The notes below the pieces were generated by a model. That model saw only the letters and a list, made by a program, of their open reading frames with translations, made no database searches and was not told the origin of the DNA. Both the position numbers and the translations under genes were made by a program. Below are positions 2,955 to 31,904 of a stretch of 64,000 bases of DNA, piece by piece. Within the stretch, counting starts at the first letter, position 1; the number at the start of each line of letters is the position of its first letter. The DNA is from a plasmid, in the sequence record CP088595.1; one strand, given 5' to 3'.

Positions 2955-3039
2955 ATACCAGATAGTACCAAAGTAAAAAATTACGGCACATCCGTGTCAT
3001 AGCGTTGTTTTGTCTAAATTCTGATAAACAGGAAATTAA

Positions 3040-4242
3040 ATGATGAAGAAAAATCATATTACCCGCACCATCATTGCATCTGCTGTATTATTTTCCTTTA
3101 ACGCTGCAGCAGCGACGTCATATTTTGAAGCGCGTAACGATGCAATGGGTGGCACCGGGGTAGCATCTTCCCATTATGGTGTGGCACCTCTGGCAAACCC
3201 GGCTTTACTGACAAAGCACAACAGCAATGATGATTTCAGCCTTCTTCTGCCGTCTGTTGGGGCACAAGTTGCTGATCCTGATGATGTATCAAATAAAGCT
3301 GATGATGTTAAAGATGACTGGGATTTGTTTGACAGTGCTGTAGATAACCAGCATGGCGTACAACAGGCAGCGGCAAATCTTAAACATCGTCTGCAGGAAT
3401 TCCGCAATATCAATGCAGATGCTCAGGTAGGTGTATCAGCTGTAGCAGCCATGGCAAATGACACTCTGCCGTTTGCCCTTATGGTCAAGTCTTACGGAAC
3501 TGTCAGCGTAAACGGAAAAGTAAACGATGCAGACCTGGATTATCTGGACAAAGTTGCCAATGGAACAATTACCGACGTCGATAAGAATGCCCTGACCTCA
3601 CGCGCATTCGGGCGTGCAGCTGTAATTACCGACGTCGGAATTTCATTTGCCAAAGAACTGGAAACGGCCGGACAAAAATGGTCTCTTGGCGTCACACCAA
3701 AATATCAGCGTGTGGACCTGTTTAACTACAACGTAACGGTTCGTGATTACGACAAAGACGATTTTGACGGTGACAAGTACCACAACACGAAAAACGGATT
3801 CAACGCCGATATTGGTGCTTATACAGACCTGAATGACAACTGGACTGTCGGTCTTGTTGCCCAGAACATCATTCCACGCAGTATTGATACTAAAGTCGTC
3901 AATGGCTTTAAAGAAACCTTCAAAGTTCGTCCACAGGCAACCGCCGGTGTATCCTGGCATAATGACCTGTTTACCACTGCTCTTGACGTTGATCTGACTC
4001 CTGCCAGTGGCTTCACTTCTGACAGCAAACGTCAGTTTGCAAGTGTTGGTGCTGAATTTAACGCATGGAAATGGGCGCAATTGCGTGCCGGTTATCGTCA
4101 GAACATGGCATCAAACTCCGGAAGCGCCTTCACCGCTGGCGTTGGTATCTCTCCATTTGACGTCGTACATATCGATGTTTCCGGCCTGGTAGGAACTGAC
4201 CACGATTACGGTGCAATGGCACAACTTCAGTTCACTTTCTGA
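3040..4242 (+). CDS. traF: TraF, secreted/outer-membrane protein (400 aa)
   Basis: N-terminal signal peptide. C-terminus QLQFTF with terminal Phe, an OMP beta-barrel signature. Position in the tra order. Confidence 0.6.
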   Translation: MMKKNHITRTIIASAVLFSFNAAAATSYFEARNDAMGGTGVASSHYGVAPLANPALLTKHNSNDDFSLLLPSVGAQVADPDDVSNKADDVKDDWDLFDSAVDNQHGVQQAAANLKHRLQEFRNINADAQVGVSAVAAMANDTLPFALMVKSYGTVSVNGKVNDADLDYLDKVANGTITDVDKNALTSRAFGRAAVITDVGISFAKELETAGQKWSLGVTPKYQRVDLFNYNVTVRDYDKDDFDGDKYHNTKNGFNADIGAYTDLNDNWTVGLVAQNIIPRSIDTKVVNGFKETFKVRPQATAGVSWHNDLFTTALDVDLTPASGFTSDSKRQFASVGAEFNAWKWAQLRAGYRQNMASNSGSAFTAGVGISPFDVVHIDVSGLVGTDHDYGAMAQLQFTF

Positions 4243-4301
4243 TTACAGTCCCCGCCCCCGGCACTAAACCCGGGGGTATTTTTATATTCAGTTTAAATAA
4301 C

Positions 4302-4886
4302 ATGATGAAACCACGTTCTTCTTATTCAAAGACAGCATTCATTCTTTTATTTTCTGTTTTCCTGGTAGCTGCAGTGACAAAAGCAAAAAGCTCGCTTCCC
4401 GATATCACCCTGGAACAGGCAAAAGAAATTAATGCTGATAACACCGTTATTTTCCTTTTCCGCCATGGAGAACGTTGCGACCGTTCAGATATGCCCTGCT
4501 ATTCGGATAAGAGCGGAATCACTATTACCGGTACAGAGAAAGCACAGCAGGAAGGTATTAAGTTCGCAACAATCTTCAGTGAATATGATATTTACTCCAG
4601 CAATGCGGTAAGAACCATACAAACTGCAAAATTCTTCTCCGGTAAAGAACCCGTCGTTATGGACAGTTTATCAGACTGCAATAATGATCTTTATAAGACG
4701 CTTGAATCAATCGCAAGAGAATCTCATAAAAGGAACATAGTAATAATGACACATAATCATTGTTTATCATTTCTGGCCAGAGATAGGCTCGGCAAGAAAT
4801 TCAAACCGGCGTACCTTGATGCCCTGATCATGCATTACGATGGTACCCGGCTCATACTTGACGGAAAATACAACAAAGAGGCATAG
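4302..4886 (+). CDS. traG: TraG (194 aa), signal peptide plus histidine-phosphatase-fold motifs
   Basis: Signal peptide. FLFRHGERCDR (the RHG motif) and a later IVIMTHNHC (second His motif). Position in the tra order. Confidence 0.6.
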   Translation: MMKPRSSYSKTAFILLFSVFLVAAVTKAKSSLPDITLEQAKEINADNTVIFLFRHGERCDRSDMPCYSDKSGITITGTEKAQQEGIKFATIFSEYDIYSSNAVRTIQTAKFFSGKEPVVMDSLSDCNNDLYKTLESIARESHKRNIVIMTHNHCLSFLARDRLGKKFKPAYLDALIMHYDGTRLILDGKYNKEA

Positions 4887-5279
4887 AGATATTTGAATTT
4901 ACATAAATTCTGATATACTCAGTAAGATACAAGAGTGTACGGGCACATGTGCCTGTCTGAATTGCAGGTTATCCGGACGAGGGCCGGGAACTGTTTCAGG
5001 GACAAGCGCCGGTACGTTCGATTCATAAATCGTCGAGTCATCCATCATGGATCGATTCGGCGCGGAGCGTTAAAGATTACGCTCACATTCATATTATGTC
5101 TGACGACCAATCAACCAGCCAGTATCAGGAATAATCACCTTCAGTAAACTATGAGGCTATTTACCTGGCCGCACTGGCATTTATTTCCGGTAACGCAAGT
5201 ATAGCCGGAAACAAACATCATCCTGTCTGTACCGGAGCACCGGTATATCCCATTCTGATTTAACTGCTCAGGAATTATT

Positions 5280-27911: not shown

Positions 27912-28208
27912 TCAGTCGATAAGTTCCCGGATCAGTTCCAGAACAGCAATCAGCGCGTTTGCAACGGCAACTACTGCCCTGAGAACGATGATTAACAGAT
28001 TAATCATCCGCTTCTCCATCACTGGAGAAAGAACCCCGTTGTTCGCTCTTACACTGCCTGTCACAACGGTTTCTATAGTGTCAGTTATAGACAGTTCTTC
28101 TCCGACCAGAGCACCAAAACCAGCACCACCTGATGTTTTGGCCAGGACTTGCAACCTGTTCTTCCCGCTGAACAATATGTCGGACAGAACATGCCTCAGA
28201 GCTGACAT
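27912..28208 (-). CDS. Hypothetical small membrane protein (98 aa), C-terminal hydrophobic helix
   Basis: ORF with a C-terminal helix INLLIIVLRAVVAVANALIAVL. Confidence 0.35.
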   Translation of the reverse strand: MSALRHVLSDILFSGKNRLQVLAKTSGGAGFGALVGEELSITDTIETVVTGSVRANNGVLSPVMEKRMINLLIIVLRAVVAVANALIAVLELIRELID

Positions 28209-28322
28209 GCCGAGTATACACTTATCCAGTACTTGCAGAAATATAATTCCAGACGTACTATCTACAAGTCAGTTATAGACAGTTCTTTTCCGACCAGAGC
28301 CACCCACTCTGTAACGGAACAG

Positions 28323-28356
28323 TAAAAAAACCGACCTCACCAGTCGGTTTTTTTAC
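28323..28356. terminator. Bidirectional rho-independent terminator
   Basis: AAAAAAACCGAC-ctcacca-GTCGGTTTTTTT. Confidence 0.6.
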
Positions 28357-28759: not shown

Positions 28760-29010
28760 AGAAGAAAGGGCGCAATGAGGTCAGCCTTCGCAACAAAGCG
28801 GCGGCAGAAAACCTGCCGCCGTGTTGCCCGTTAACGTTTAACTTCGTAGGCTAACGTTGCCACAAGCACTGTGTTTCCCTGCTGGAGCCGGAGTCCGCAA
28901 AGCGAATCCCTCACCATCCAGACAAAACACAGAATCGTCACACAGACGACGATTAACATCATTAAAAACGTTCGCTGTGGCATCATAGCCCCTCCATTGC
29001 CTTCCGGCGG

Positions 29011-29182
29011 TTATCGGGCTACTATAATGTTGTTGAGGCATTACAGTAGAGCCCTTGGTTGATTGATAAAAAAATCTCCAGGGGCTTTCTGCTGTATACC
29101 GTCCACAAAACGCTTTCGGCATACAGCCTCAAGCGCCCGCAGCTATTCTAACGACTTTCGTATCTGTAACAATCCTTTTATT
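29011..29182. repeat. Left copy of a ~170-bp direct repeat (about 95% identical to 30431-30602)
   Basis: Aligned by eye. Contains TACTATAAT and two internal inverted repeats. Confidence 0.8.
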
Positions 29183-29297
29183 ATTTGAATGATTCAGCGT
29201 TGTTTTTGAAGTTAACAACCAACCCAATACATGGTTCTCTACTTCACAACAACGCATGTTATGCTGATTTTAGTTAATAAAAGAATCCCCTTAGGAG

Positions 29298-30389
29298 ATG
29301 GAAATGTCGCAGTTAAAACAACCTATTTTCCTGAAAAAGATAAAAAAAGTCATCAACACAATCCCTGGGCTTGAAGAGCAAATCTTTGCATGCCGAAATA
29401 AAAAACGCAGCGACAATCCATTATTATTTATCGACAGAAAAGATGAAGAACGCATACTAATGAGTCGTCTCCAGAGCCAACAAAAAAATGAAGAACTGGC
29501 TTCTAAACTAGAATCTTTATTTCATGGAAACGAATTATCGTCACCACACAGTATTTTGTGTTTTATATACTGGCGCTATACAAAGAAAATTTATCGCCTA
29601 AGCGAGGACATCATCAGTGATGTGGCTAACACCTATGTTGATAACATTCCTGCACAGATCCTCAAGGAACTCCCTTCATGGAGTATCTATGTTTCAGCCG
29701 AAAATCTGCATACTATACTTCCTACGTCCTATCCGATACATGGATTTTTCTTTTATCCATTTTTGGACAATAATGGAAATATTATCCGGCTTTTCATTAT
29801 TGATGATCTGAAACAAAGTCAAGGAACTACAGGGCTAAAAGAAAAGGATGTTGACGTCGTCAATAATATCATCAGAATAAAGGACTCTCGTGAAGGACTT
29901 CTTGACTCCAGAAAGATGGAGTGTATCGATGGTGAAGTCGTCGTAACAGTTAACGAAAAGCTCAAAGATTTCAGAGACAGGGAGTTTAATCTTCTTAACG
30001 CACAGATATCAATGGTGCTTTATATCTGTTCACAGATCAATGATATAAAAGAAAAAAATCAATTTAAACGGTCAGAAAAGCACAAAAAGCATGTTCACAC
30101 TCACCATGAACTACCAGCACAAAACATTCGGGAGTGGGACGTTGGTATTCGAATGGGGCAAGCCATACGGCAATATCGCCAAGCAGAACCCACAGGGAAA
30201 GAGCGGACAACAATAGGTAGCAAACGTCCTCATATACGCCGGGGACACTGGCATACATACTGGACAGGAAGTAAGAAACCAGAACTAGCCCATGAGCGTA
30301 AACCTAGATTAATATGGTTACCTCCGGTACCAGTTAATTTAGAAGACGTAAACAAACTACCGGTGGTAATAACACCCATTGATAAATGA
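29298..30389 (+). CDS. Orphan 363-aa protein, AT-rich, no recognisable domain
   Basis: Long clean ORF with a GGAG RBS. Lys/Ile/Asn-rich composition, different from the backbone. Confidence 0.6.
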   Translation: MEMSQLKQPIFLKKIKKVINTIPGLEEQIFACRNKKRSDNPLLFIDRKDEERILMSRLQSQQKNEELASKLESLFHGNELSSPHSILCFIYWRYTKKIYRLSEDIISDVANTYVDNIPAQILKELPSWSIYVSAENLHTILPTSYPIHGFFFYPFLDNNGNIIRLFIIDDLKQSQGTTGLKEKDVDVVNNIIRIKDSREGLLDSRKMECIDGEVVVTVNEKLKDFRDREFNLLNAQISMVLYICSQINDIKEKNQFKRSEKHKKHVHTHHELPAQNIREWDVGIRMGQAIRQYRQAEPTGKERTTIGSKRPHIRRGHWHTYWTGSKKPELAHERKPRLIWLPPVPVNLEDVNKLPVVITPIDK

Positions 30390-30430
30390 CCTGAAAAGTA
30401 TCTTTTCCGGTAGGATGTACACATATCTAA

Positions 30431-30602
30431 ATTATCAGGCTACTATAATGTTGTCTAGGCATTACAGTAGAGCCCTTGGTTGATTGATAAAAAATCTCCA
30501 GGGGGCTTTCTGCTGTATACCATCCACAAAACGCTTTCGGCATACAGCCTCAAGCGTCCGCGGCTATTCTAACGACTTTCGTATCTGCAACAATCCTTTT
30601 AT
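30431..30602. repeat. Right copy of the ~170-bp direct repeat
   Basis: See left copy. Confidence 0.8.
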
Positions 30603-30695
30603 CACACGGCTAATTCCTCTGGTTAGCTCTTATCGCCTGCAAATAAATTTTTAACCTTTCCGTTTGATTTAAATTCCAGAAATGGAGACTTTGTC

Positions 30696-31904
30696 ATGTC
30701 TTACAATCGACAGCCTGTCGCAGAAGATCCTATGCAGATATGGGGCGCTGTTGGTGTCCTTCTTATCCTGCTGCTATTCGTCATATGGTTATTCTTGCCG
30801 GAAGTGGTTTACGCCAGCTGCCTGATTCTTCATACCTTATGGGGACTGGTTGACTGGGGACCATTTCATAACTATGCAGCACCACGATACAACCTGCTTG
30901 CCATGACCGGTAACAACGCCGCCAACATAAGCTATAGCCAGTGGGTTAACGTCATGGAGCAGACCATAGGTATTTTGTGGATGTACCTCTTACCTGTGAC
31001 ACTCTGGTGTTTGTGGGAATGGTATCAACATCCGGGACAAAGCCGTTTCACCCGCAGACCAGTAGATATTACCCGACTGCCACACATCTTTGCTTCGTTG
31101 TCCCCTGCTATCGCCCCTGTACTGGAAGATGGTGATCCGGAAAAACTCTTTCATGGTGGTAAACGACCTGAACGGCGGGTTGCTCTCACCCCGGAAGCAT
31201 TTGTCGAACAGCATACTCTCATCACCAATATGCAGCTCGATGTTGCAGCTGCAAGACGATGTTTCATGGCCCAGTTGGGTAAACCTTTAACGTCCTGGAA
31301 AGACATGGCACCACATGAAAAAGCGCTCTTTGCCATATTTGGCCTTCAGTATTTCCTGGATGATCGGAAGGCAGCATTAAAGCTCATGGATACACTGAAC
31401 CTCTCATGCAGAATTAAAAGCAAACGGGACAGCGGGAAATTCTGTACCCCTGTTTATTCACTGGCCAAATCAGCTTTCCAGAGAGTGATTAAAAGCAACG
31501 GAGCACAGCAATGGCTGAAACAACATCGCTACGTCCGCAGTGGGCTGGTCTGGCTGTATGCACATGACCTGCGGCTTACGCCACCCAACTGGATTTGGCT
31601 GAAAGGCGTGGACAGAACGCTGTTTTATGCATTACACCGCGCCAATACCACGAAAGGATTTATTGAAGGCGCTGGCGTGGTGGCCGTTGCACGTGCAGAG
31701 GCCGAAGCCATGCGTTTTGGCCTTCCCTGCCCTGAACCCTGTGTTGATGAAGCGGTGGAAGGCTTACGGCGGGATATGCTCAGTCTCGGTCTTATCTGGG
31801 ATGAACCACAACCAGATCGCGACCGGAAACGCCGCATCCTGACCAACTGGTCCCTCACCGAAGACATCCTGCCCCGTACACCTGCTACAGACAACGAATT
31901 CTGA
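30696..31904 (+). CDS. trbA: TrbA (402 aa), DotM-like membrane protein
   Basis: Two N-terminal TM segments. Position before trbB/trbC. Confidence 0.65.
   Translation: MSYNRQPVAEDPMQIWGAVGVLLILLLFVIWLFLPEVVYASCLILHTLWGLVDWGPFHNYAAPRYNLLAMTGNNAANISYSQWVNVMEQTIGILWMYLLPVTLWCLWEWYQHPGQSRFTRRPVDITRLPHIFASLSPAIAPVLEDGDPEKLFHGGKRPERRVALTPEAFVEQHTLITNMQLDVAAARRCFMAQLGKPLTSWKDMAPHEKALFAIFGLQYFLDDRKAALKLMDTLNLSCRIKSKRDSGKFCTPVYSLAKSAFQRVIKSNGAQQWLKQHRYVRSGLVWLYAHDLRLTPPNWIWLKGVDRTLFYALHRANTTKGFIEGAGVVAVARAEAEAMRFGLPCPEPCVDEAVEGLRRDMLSLGLIWDEPQPDRDRKRRILTNWSLTEDILPRTPATDNEF

Follow-up and report, generated by a model that had tools for sequence, protein, structure and literature searches.

What is the AT-rich gene that lies between two near-identical repeats in the excA–trbA interval of an IncI plasmid, and what are the repeats that flank it? 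The question arose from a 64,000-nucleotide stretch of the plasmid record CP088595.1 (hereafter the window), in which a preliminary description, made from the sequence letters, had picked out positions 29011–30602 as an orphan gene without a recognizable motif, held between structured direct repeats, and as the likeliest place in the window for something undescribed. Our analysis leads to a more familiar answer. The segment is very probably the known finQ insertion in the pndC/pndA–trbA interval of an IncI1-type conjugative plasmid, accompanied by a duplicated control module of the pnd toxin–antitoxin locus.

A repeat search of the window placed both repeats in one family of direct repeats, 171 nt long, at 29011–29181 and 30432–30602, with 92% identity when aligned without gaps. 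By blastn the pair was 94.8% identical, with seven mismatches and two one-base gaps, so that both the positions and the identity of about 95% in the preliminary description were sound. The 1,250-bp insert between them (29182–30431, plus strand) had a G+C content of 38.5%, compared with 39% for its open reading frame and 51% for the whole window, and carried one long open reading frame (29298–30389, plus strand, 363 residues), whose product is richest in Ile, Leu and Lys. An AT-rich segment with a single long gene had indeed been described.

That reading frame already has a name. Its exact 361- and 363-residue translations, which differ in the choice of start codon, have been deposited as ‘protein finQ’ or ‘fertility inhibition protein’ on at least 1,000 contigs, and the PLSDB plasmid records that span our whole query label it ‘finQ: protein FinQ’ or ‘fertility inhibition protein’. 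One of these records, NZ_CP020511, is 100% identical to our 2-kb query and annotates the frame as finQ. Judged by this identity to named entries, the product is FinQ, the fertility-inhibition protein of IncI plasmids; it is encoded on the same IncI1/I-gamma backbone and at the same pnd–trbA position as known FinQ, from which we found no substantive difference. Searches of Pfam and NCBIfam with the protein returned no family, but the label of an orphan without a motif does not hold, the protein being named and carrying the H-x-R motif of AcrVA2 described below.

FinQ has a history of experimental study, and Ham and Skurray reportedly worked in 1989 on FinQ of the IncI plasmids R62, R820a and R621a. 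That the gene might turn out to encode a well-characterized protein had been raised in the preliminary description as a point that would tell against novelty, and this is essentially what was found. FinQ of IncI plasmids inhibits the conjugation of an F plasmid that shares the same cell (PMC8744291), which agrees with the earlier suggestion of a function in conflict between elements, and its action has been described as Rho-independent termination of F tra-operon transcription at several sites (PMC8744291, citing Ham & Skurray 1989).

The start of finQ required a choice between two codons. An AGGAG sequence at 29293–29297 directly abuts the ATG at 29298, which would give 363 residues, and stands 6 nt ahead of a second ATG at 29304; because this spacing suits the second codon, a 361-residue product (finQ, 29304–30389, plus strand) is the likelier one from the sequence, and 361 residues is also the length of FinQ in those parts of PMC8004404 that deal with the insertion. 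The RefSeq/PGAP model of finQ is only 259 residues long (29610–30389), with an ATC start and an N-terminus reading MISDVANTY.... This start looks wrong because a good Shine–Dalgarno sequence and an ATG are present at 29304, because a 78%-identical homologue (see below) is annotated with 361 residues and because the alignment with AcrVA2 begins at residue 85 and takes in a conserved tryptophan, W90. The RefSeq N-terminus has thus probably been mis-called and is too short, and the shortened model drops W90, whose equivalent matters in AcrVA2.

A phmmer search of PDB sequences matched FinQ to AcrVA2 (7ci1_A, E = 3.9e-17) over query stretches 85–160 and 232–347. The sequence KRPHIRRGHWH aligned residue for residue between the two proteins, and AcrVA2 residues H286, R288, H291 and W79 corresponded to H310, R312, H315 and W90 of FinQ (361-residue numbering). 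FinQ also matched PHROG 6160, a phage protein family of unknown function, with E = 8.3e-48. On these alignments FinQ belongs to the AcrVA2 protein family, and an earlier study named it explicitly as a homologue of AcrVA2 by which F transfer-gene mRNA is reduced (Marino et al., bioRxiv 10.1101/2022.11.29.518452). The same study reported that AcrVA2 activity depends on H286, R288 and H291, that W79 matters too, that AcrVA2 attaches to its target's nascent N-terminal peptide and so brings about translation-dependent loss of the target mRNA, and that the predicted structures of FinQ and AcrVA2 are alike in their C-terminal domains and divergent at their N-termini.

The resemblance to AcrVA2 of Moraxella bovoculi (PDB 7CI1/7CI2) therefore extends over most of the protein, with the C-terminal KRPH-I-R-RGH residues and the tryptophan retained, and both proteins reduce the mRNA of genes belonging to a rival system. 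They differ in target, F transfer genes for FinQ and Cas12a for AcrVA2, and in the diverging N-terminal region; moreover, translation-dependent mRNA loss is a trait described for AcrVA2, whereas what older work reported for FinQ is a lowered level of F tra transcripts. By homology, FinQ may recognize a nascent polypeptide made from the F transfer operon, and its conserved H-x-R...H region would then trigger loss of that mRNA during translation. Action of this kind would explain the old Rho-independent ‘termination’ phenotype at several F tra sites, and the IncI plasmid would gain from suppressing transfer of a co-resident competitor. FinQ is a good and tractable test of whether AcrVA2-type, translation-dependent mRNA destruction operates in plasmid–plasmid conflict, a question posed by Marino et al.

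The repeats, too, could be identified. The Rfam model RF01794 (‘sok’) matched the strand that encodes pndA twice, at 28981–29138 with 132.8 bits and at 30402–30559 with 86.4 bits (gathering score 59). Its consensus starts at the 5′ end of hok-family mRNA, GGGCGCUUGAGG, and ends at the toxin AUG; since the model runs from the mRNA 5′ end to the toxin AUG, what it recognizes is the mRNA leader, the complement of which encodes the antisense antitoxin. The 11-bp stem CTACTATAATG/CATTACAGTAG and the second stem CTGTATACC/GGCATACAG, both of which had been noticed in the preliminary description, formed in predicted folds of the minus-strand RNA and coincided with paired positions of the Rfam consensus, where they are the two conserved leader stems. 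The −10-like box TACTATAAT was likewise present in both the left and the right repeat. The hairpins stood well above chance (Rfam E = 1.8e-31 and 3.8e-19; fold z = −5.6 and −3.7). The earlier idea of a structured RNA has thereby gained a definite form, in which the repeats correspond, by Rfam match and folding, to the mRNA leader of a pnd/hok-family locus together with its predicted antisense PndB gene. The same evidence marks both repeats as 5′ control modules of a pnd (hok/sok-family) type I toxin–antitoxin locus.

The left copy (29011–29181), the resident module, is attached to pndA; within it lie a predicted pnd promoter, the leader as far as its nucleotide 128 and, on the opposite strand, a predicted antisense PndB gene. 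The toxin gene pndA (28831–28986, minus strand) encodes a Hok/Gef-family membrane protein of 50–51 residues, recognized as an open reading frame and from the annotation ‘Hok/Gef family protein’ in identical plasmids. Full-length pnd mRNA, with inferred ends, would extend over 28765–29138 on the minus strand, from the 5′ end GGGCGCUUGAGG at 29138 to a 3′ fold-back element GCGCCC at about 28768–28773. A 379-nt left transcript folded with −163 kcal/mol (z = −7.4), and in both the minimum-energy and the centroid folds its 5′ GGGCGC (29138–29133) paired with the 3′ GCGCCC (about 28773–28768), a pairing confined to the left locus. The predicted pnd promoter, found by promoter scan (29145–29172, minus strand), reads TTGTTA-16-TAGAAT and lies 7 nt 5′ of the leader start. 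Taken together, these sequence features show the left copy to belong to an intact pnd locus, in which leader, pndA and 3′ fold-back element are all present.

The right copy (30432–30602), which again comprises a predicted promoter, 128 nt of leader and a predicted PndB gene, is an orphan module without a toxin gene and abuts the upstream region of trbA. Its RF01794 alignment degenerated past the repeat edge, where the 3′ flank of finQ stands in place of a toxin open reading frame. The predicted orphan pnd promoter (30566–30593, minus strand; TTGTTG-16-TAGAAT) is aimed antisense into the 3′ end of finQ. For the antisense RNA, whose orientation we took from PMC5330492 and the known hok/sok architecture, the predicted left PndB (29036–29095, plus strand) has a −10 TATAAT at 29023–29028 and begins with a 5′ tail, after which come a long terminator-like hairpin and UUUCU; the predicted orphan PndB′ (30457–30516, plus strand) has its −10 TATAAT at 30444–30449 and, compared with the left copy, has lost one A and gained one G in the hairpin. 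Folding energies were −30 kcal/mol (z = −5.8) for the left RNA and −26.1 kcal/mol (z = −4.5) for the right. We recognized no convincing −35 for PndB, and both copies have the TATAAT and a stable hairpin followed by UUUCU.

Compared with pnd (pndBCA) of R483/R64 and the hok/sok family, the left copy together with pndA has the expected toxin, RF01794 leader and fold-back element and, on the opposite strand, a predicted antisense gene. The difference lies in the doubling of the control module, the right copy of which lacks pndC/pndA and the 3′ fold-back and so does not make a stand-alone toxin–antitoxin system.

The loop of the 11-bp hairpin (29034–29037 in the left copy, 30455–30458 in the right) is the loop of a pnd leader stem and falls at, or just before, the predicted start of PndB. 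In 13 plasmids otherwise 98–99% identical we saw at least four alleles of it (TG.G, CT.G, CG.A and TC.T), with one more in a partial copy, and the loop may be unconstrained. PndB was identical in 125 IncI1 plasmids (PMC5330492); given that identity, the loop bases are probably not part of the antisense RNA but sit just beyond its edge, and we set aside as unproven the notion that 29034–29037 determines PndB specificity.

How widespread is the arrangement, and has it been described before? Megablast of positions 28800–30800 against PLSDB returned 1,953 plasmid records, nearly all of them conjugative IncI-type plasmids of Escherichia, Salmonella, Shigella and Klebsiella. The insert alone was found in 518 PLSDB plasmid records, in 514 of which its identity reached at least 99%, and the full finQ arrangement in about 390. 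Five plasmids that we read at this locus, R64, ColIb-P9, pS51_1, pKPNH54.2 and pPK8276, have pndA, one module copy and trbA, without finQ, and among the matching records a single module copy and no finQ is the state of most IncI plasmids. Looking for lone copies of the repeat in other IncI plasmids, as the preliminary description had advised, thus did reveal empty sites, each with exactly one repeat. Its picture of cargo gained and lost was correct in so far as a gene of foreign composition is present or absent at this site. The caveat that the element might be an ordinary intergenic region also essentially describes what we found, as it is the pndA–trbA intergenic region and occurs once in R64, ColIb-P9 and pS51_1. 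To the right of the site follows the backbone gene trbA (30696–31904, plus strand), identified as an open reading frame and from the annotation of identical plasmids.

In a further set of records, probably more than 100, finQ is cut at about codon 113; we read one of them, pSC138 (NC_006856). There an ISEcp1-blaCMY-2-blc-sugE segment lies in finQ (at the equivalent of about 29640), and the first 113 or so codons, the left pnd module and pndA are gone. The remnant is still annotated ‘protein FinQ’.

The insertion and its duplication are already known. The relevant parts of PMC8004404 report a 1,250-bp FinQ insertion, termed ‘RD1’, that duplicates a 173-bp intergenic sequence, and those of PMC2887853 report that a finQ insertion alters the length of the trbA–pndC locus used in IncI1 plasmid multilocus sequence typing. 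The insert described here is the same in its 1,250-bp length, its 361-residue FinQ and its duplication of about 173 bp on the trbA side. In these parts of the two papers the duplicate counts simply as intergenic sequence or as belonging to the 5′ end of pndC; here it appears as a complete module of pnd promoter, leader and PndB. Our additions are minor ones, namely the recognition of the repeat as a pnd module, cassette-linked single-nucleotide polymorphisms at the inner repeat edges, the probable mis-call of the RefSeq start and the presence of other cargo at the site. As a putative second antitoxin-RNA and promoter module, the ‘intergenic’ duplicate calls for caution in engineering pnd or the trbA–pndC typing locus.

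These observations bear on the reading first proposed for the segment, an undescribed single-gene cassette for defence or abortive infection with the structured repeats as dedicated recombination sites. Cargo is indeed present or absent between direct repeats, and the site is occupied by different genes in other IncI plasmids, also beside partial pnd-leader copies, both of which would fit a cassette of that kind. Yet the gene is finQ, with a published phenotype and family, the repeats correspond to the resident control region of pnd, PADLOC gave the finQ product no significant defence-system match (best E = 0.0085, 14.7 bits), no signature of site-specific recombination was found at the insert and the arrangement is already in the literature, in the parts of PMC2887853 and PMC8004404 cited above. 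We regard this reading as highly improbable, and the place is not one of something undescribed, as gene, phenotype, family, insertion and duplication have all been published.

If the segment is the known finQ insertion, how did it come to lie between two pnd modules? The ends of the insert showed no terminal inverted repeats beyond a longest match of 5 nt. A scan of 28900–30700 found neither an sfx core (up to three mismatches) nor a dif-like site (up to six mismatches), integron attC sites lying outside this search; outside this region the window does contain the sfx core, which served as a control. The repeats had been thought possible recombination sites, and this idea lost ground with the lack of terminal inverted repeats, sfx and dif sites. 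A 171-nt duplication is, besides, far longer than any transposase target duplication. The combination of that duplication with the missing inverted repeats, sfx and dif sites speaks against a transposon, an insertion sequence or a site-specific cassette.

We then compared 19 module copies from 13 plasmids base by base. All seven right copies had an A at the equivalent of 29016, 5 nt from the insert, and all six left copies of finQ-bearing plasmids had a T at 29167, 14 nt from the insert; neither base occurred in any of the five empty sites. A T and a G at the equivalents of 29136 and 29141 were common to six of the seven right copies. The allele of the left-copy loop (29034–29037), on the other hand, tracked the backbone: TG.G was shared by the window, pEC224_2 and the empty plasmids pKPNH54.2 and pPK8276, and CG.A by four other finQ-bearing plasmids together with R64 and ColIb-P9. 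Along most of the right copy of pSA20104250.1, conversion to the resident type had taken place.

The simplest history that would accommodate these patterns is one in which the finQ cassette carries diverged pnd-leader homology at its inner edges; homologous recombination in this shared sequence would have brought it in and would pass it from one IncI backbone to another, with occasional gene conversion. Neither transposition nor site-specific recombination would have a part in its movement. A full pnd module on each side would make the insertion tolerable, since pndA would keep its promoter and antitoxin and trbA its native upstream region.

Several points weigh against this account and against the AcrVA2-like action proposed above. 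The base-by-base comparison covered only 13 plasmids, and the cassette-linked polymorphisms could be mutations inherited from one ancestral finQ-bearing plasmid. We sought in PLSDB a donor with finQ beside a pnd-like module and found none. The ends of the pnd and PndB transcripts and both promoters are predicted positions. On the side of mechanism, D89 of AcrVA2 is replaced by Ser in FinQ, and the mode of action is extrapolated from AcrVA2 with no FinQ target peptide known.

The search for a donor did return relatives of finQ. The only diverged full-length homologue in PLSDB was 78% identical and came from NZ_CP019193, an IncFIB plasmid of Salmonella Rubislaw, with no sok/hok match nearby; its DNA homology to the window is limited to 29242–30389, beginning 62 bp ahead of the start codon and ending with the stop codon. 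A Serratia match to finQ was a fragment. The NZ_CP019193 homologue has 361 residues (positions 4001–5086 of the stretch examined), is annotated ‘hypothetical protein’ and is flanked by a DUF2913 gene and by two-partner-secretion (haemagglutinin/ShlB) genes.

The direction of change could also be the reverse, with the finQ-bearing state ancestral and single-copy empty plasmids arising repeatedly by RecA-dependent deletion between the repeats, which takes up the loss by recombination that the preliminary description had envisaged. Empty sites have exactly one copy with the expected flanks, and their bases (G at 29016, C at 29167) correspond to the left end of the left copy joined to the right end of the right copy, which a crossover within 29142–29166 would yield. 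A crossover in the other 120 nt or so would, however, leave the right-copy T and G at 29136 and 29141, and none of the five empty sites read has them. A chimeric query built as the footprint of such a deletion found no record with fewer than four mismatches, and neither of the two records read, from the 21 best, carried right-copy alleles. The foreign composition of the insert (38.5% against 51% G+C) and a finQ identity of at least 99% in 514 records, which suggests recent spread, also speak against an ancestral finQ. The repeats could recombine and so delete finQ, but no footprint of such loss turned up in these searches; as the explanation of empty sites we think it unlikely, and prefer gain of finQ by recombination in the pnd leader.

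Gain in this manner would leave a second pnd module behind, and we asked whether that module does anything. It is most likely a tolerated by-product rather than a working part. The alternative is that the right module works, either by its pnd promoter transcribing antisense through finQ and so setting finQ expression, or by PndB′ providing an extra antitoxin or one of altered specificity, as an anti-addiction device against other pnd plasmids, or both. The orphan promoter, TTGTTG-16-TAGAAT, shares its hexamers with the functional single copy of R64 and of ColIb-P9; in the base-by-base comparison, every right copy and every empty site had C at the equivalent of 29167. In the window the −10 of PndB′ is a perfect TATAAT and the RNA still folds, and a toxin-less pnd module supplied in trans neutralizes IncI1 addiction (PMC5330492). 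A terminator-like hairpin on the minus strand (29299–29285) would, moreover, end an antisense transcript just beyond finQ.

Decay speaks on the other side. The PndB −10 was TGTAAT in four of the seven right copies (equivalent to window position 30445), which alters the best-conserved base of the −10 and suggests from the sequence that the orphan antisense promoter is decaying in those lineages, pSC138 among them. Several right copies have one-base insertions or deletions in the PndB hairpin, and the RF01794 score falls from left to right by the margin given above. The identity of PndB across the IncI1 plasmids of PMC5330492 places the variable loop probably outside the antisense RNA, so that there would be no specificity classes. 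We consider a working right module improbable, slightly more so than repeated deletion. The minus-strand hairpin at 29285–29299 is composed of ATCTCC-TAA-GGGGAT followed by a T-rich tail and overlaps the finQ Shine–Dalgarno sequence; it may be a chance match.

FinQ is not the only cargo found at this position. A 317-residue protein is encoded upstream of trbA in pWP2-S18-ESBL-07_1 and pSZESBLEC201-3, and in NZ_AP021945 (positions 2990–3943 of the stretch examined) it has an N-terminal FitA-like ribbon-helix-helix domain (PF22513, E = 1.7e-6). In pSZL31.1 the place upstream of trbA is taken by a 302-residue orphan; in NZ_CP085984 (positions 2066–2974 of the stretch examined) this AT-rich protein had no Pfam, PDB or PADLOC match. 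A PDB search with both alternative cargo proteins gave no match, and Pfam identified the FitA-like domain in one only. Each alternative cargo has additional pnd-leader copies beside it, either full or partial: a full copy and a second, partial copy accompany different cargo in CP090077 (about 3096–4406 of the stretch examined), and the NZ_CP085984 site has a 44-bp promoter fragment and a 143-bp pnd-leader copy, with pndA deleted.

Such sites invite a broader proposal, that pnd 5′ modules are a general homologous ‘landing pad’ for swapping genes of inter-plasmid conflict upstream of trbA in IncI-complex plasmids, with a functional orphan module whose promoter runs antisense into the cargo and whose PndB copy adds antitoxin. 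We give this extended form a small chance, about that of a working right module by itself.

The excA–trbA interval contains a second type I toxin–antitoxin pair, at 27912–28356. Its DinQ-like toxin gene, dqlB (27912–28007, minus strand), is known from the annotation of a related plasmid, and its AgrB-like antisense RNA (28269–28356, plus strand) from a match to Rfam RF02891 with 53.7 bits. A 33-nt direct repeat of 97% identity (28080–28112 and 28268–28300) is presumably the stretch through which the AgrB-like small RNA pairs with the toxin mRNA.

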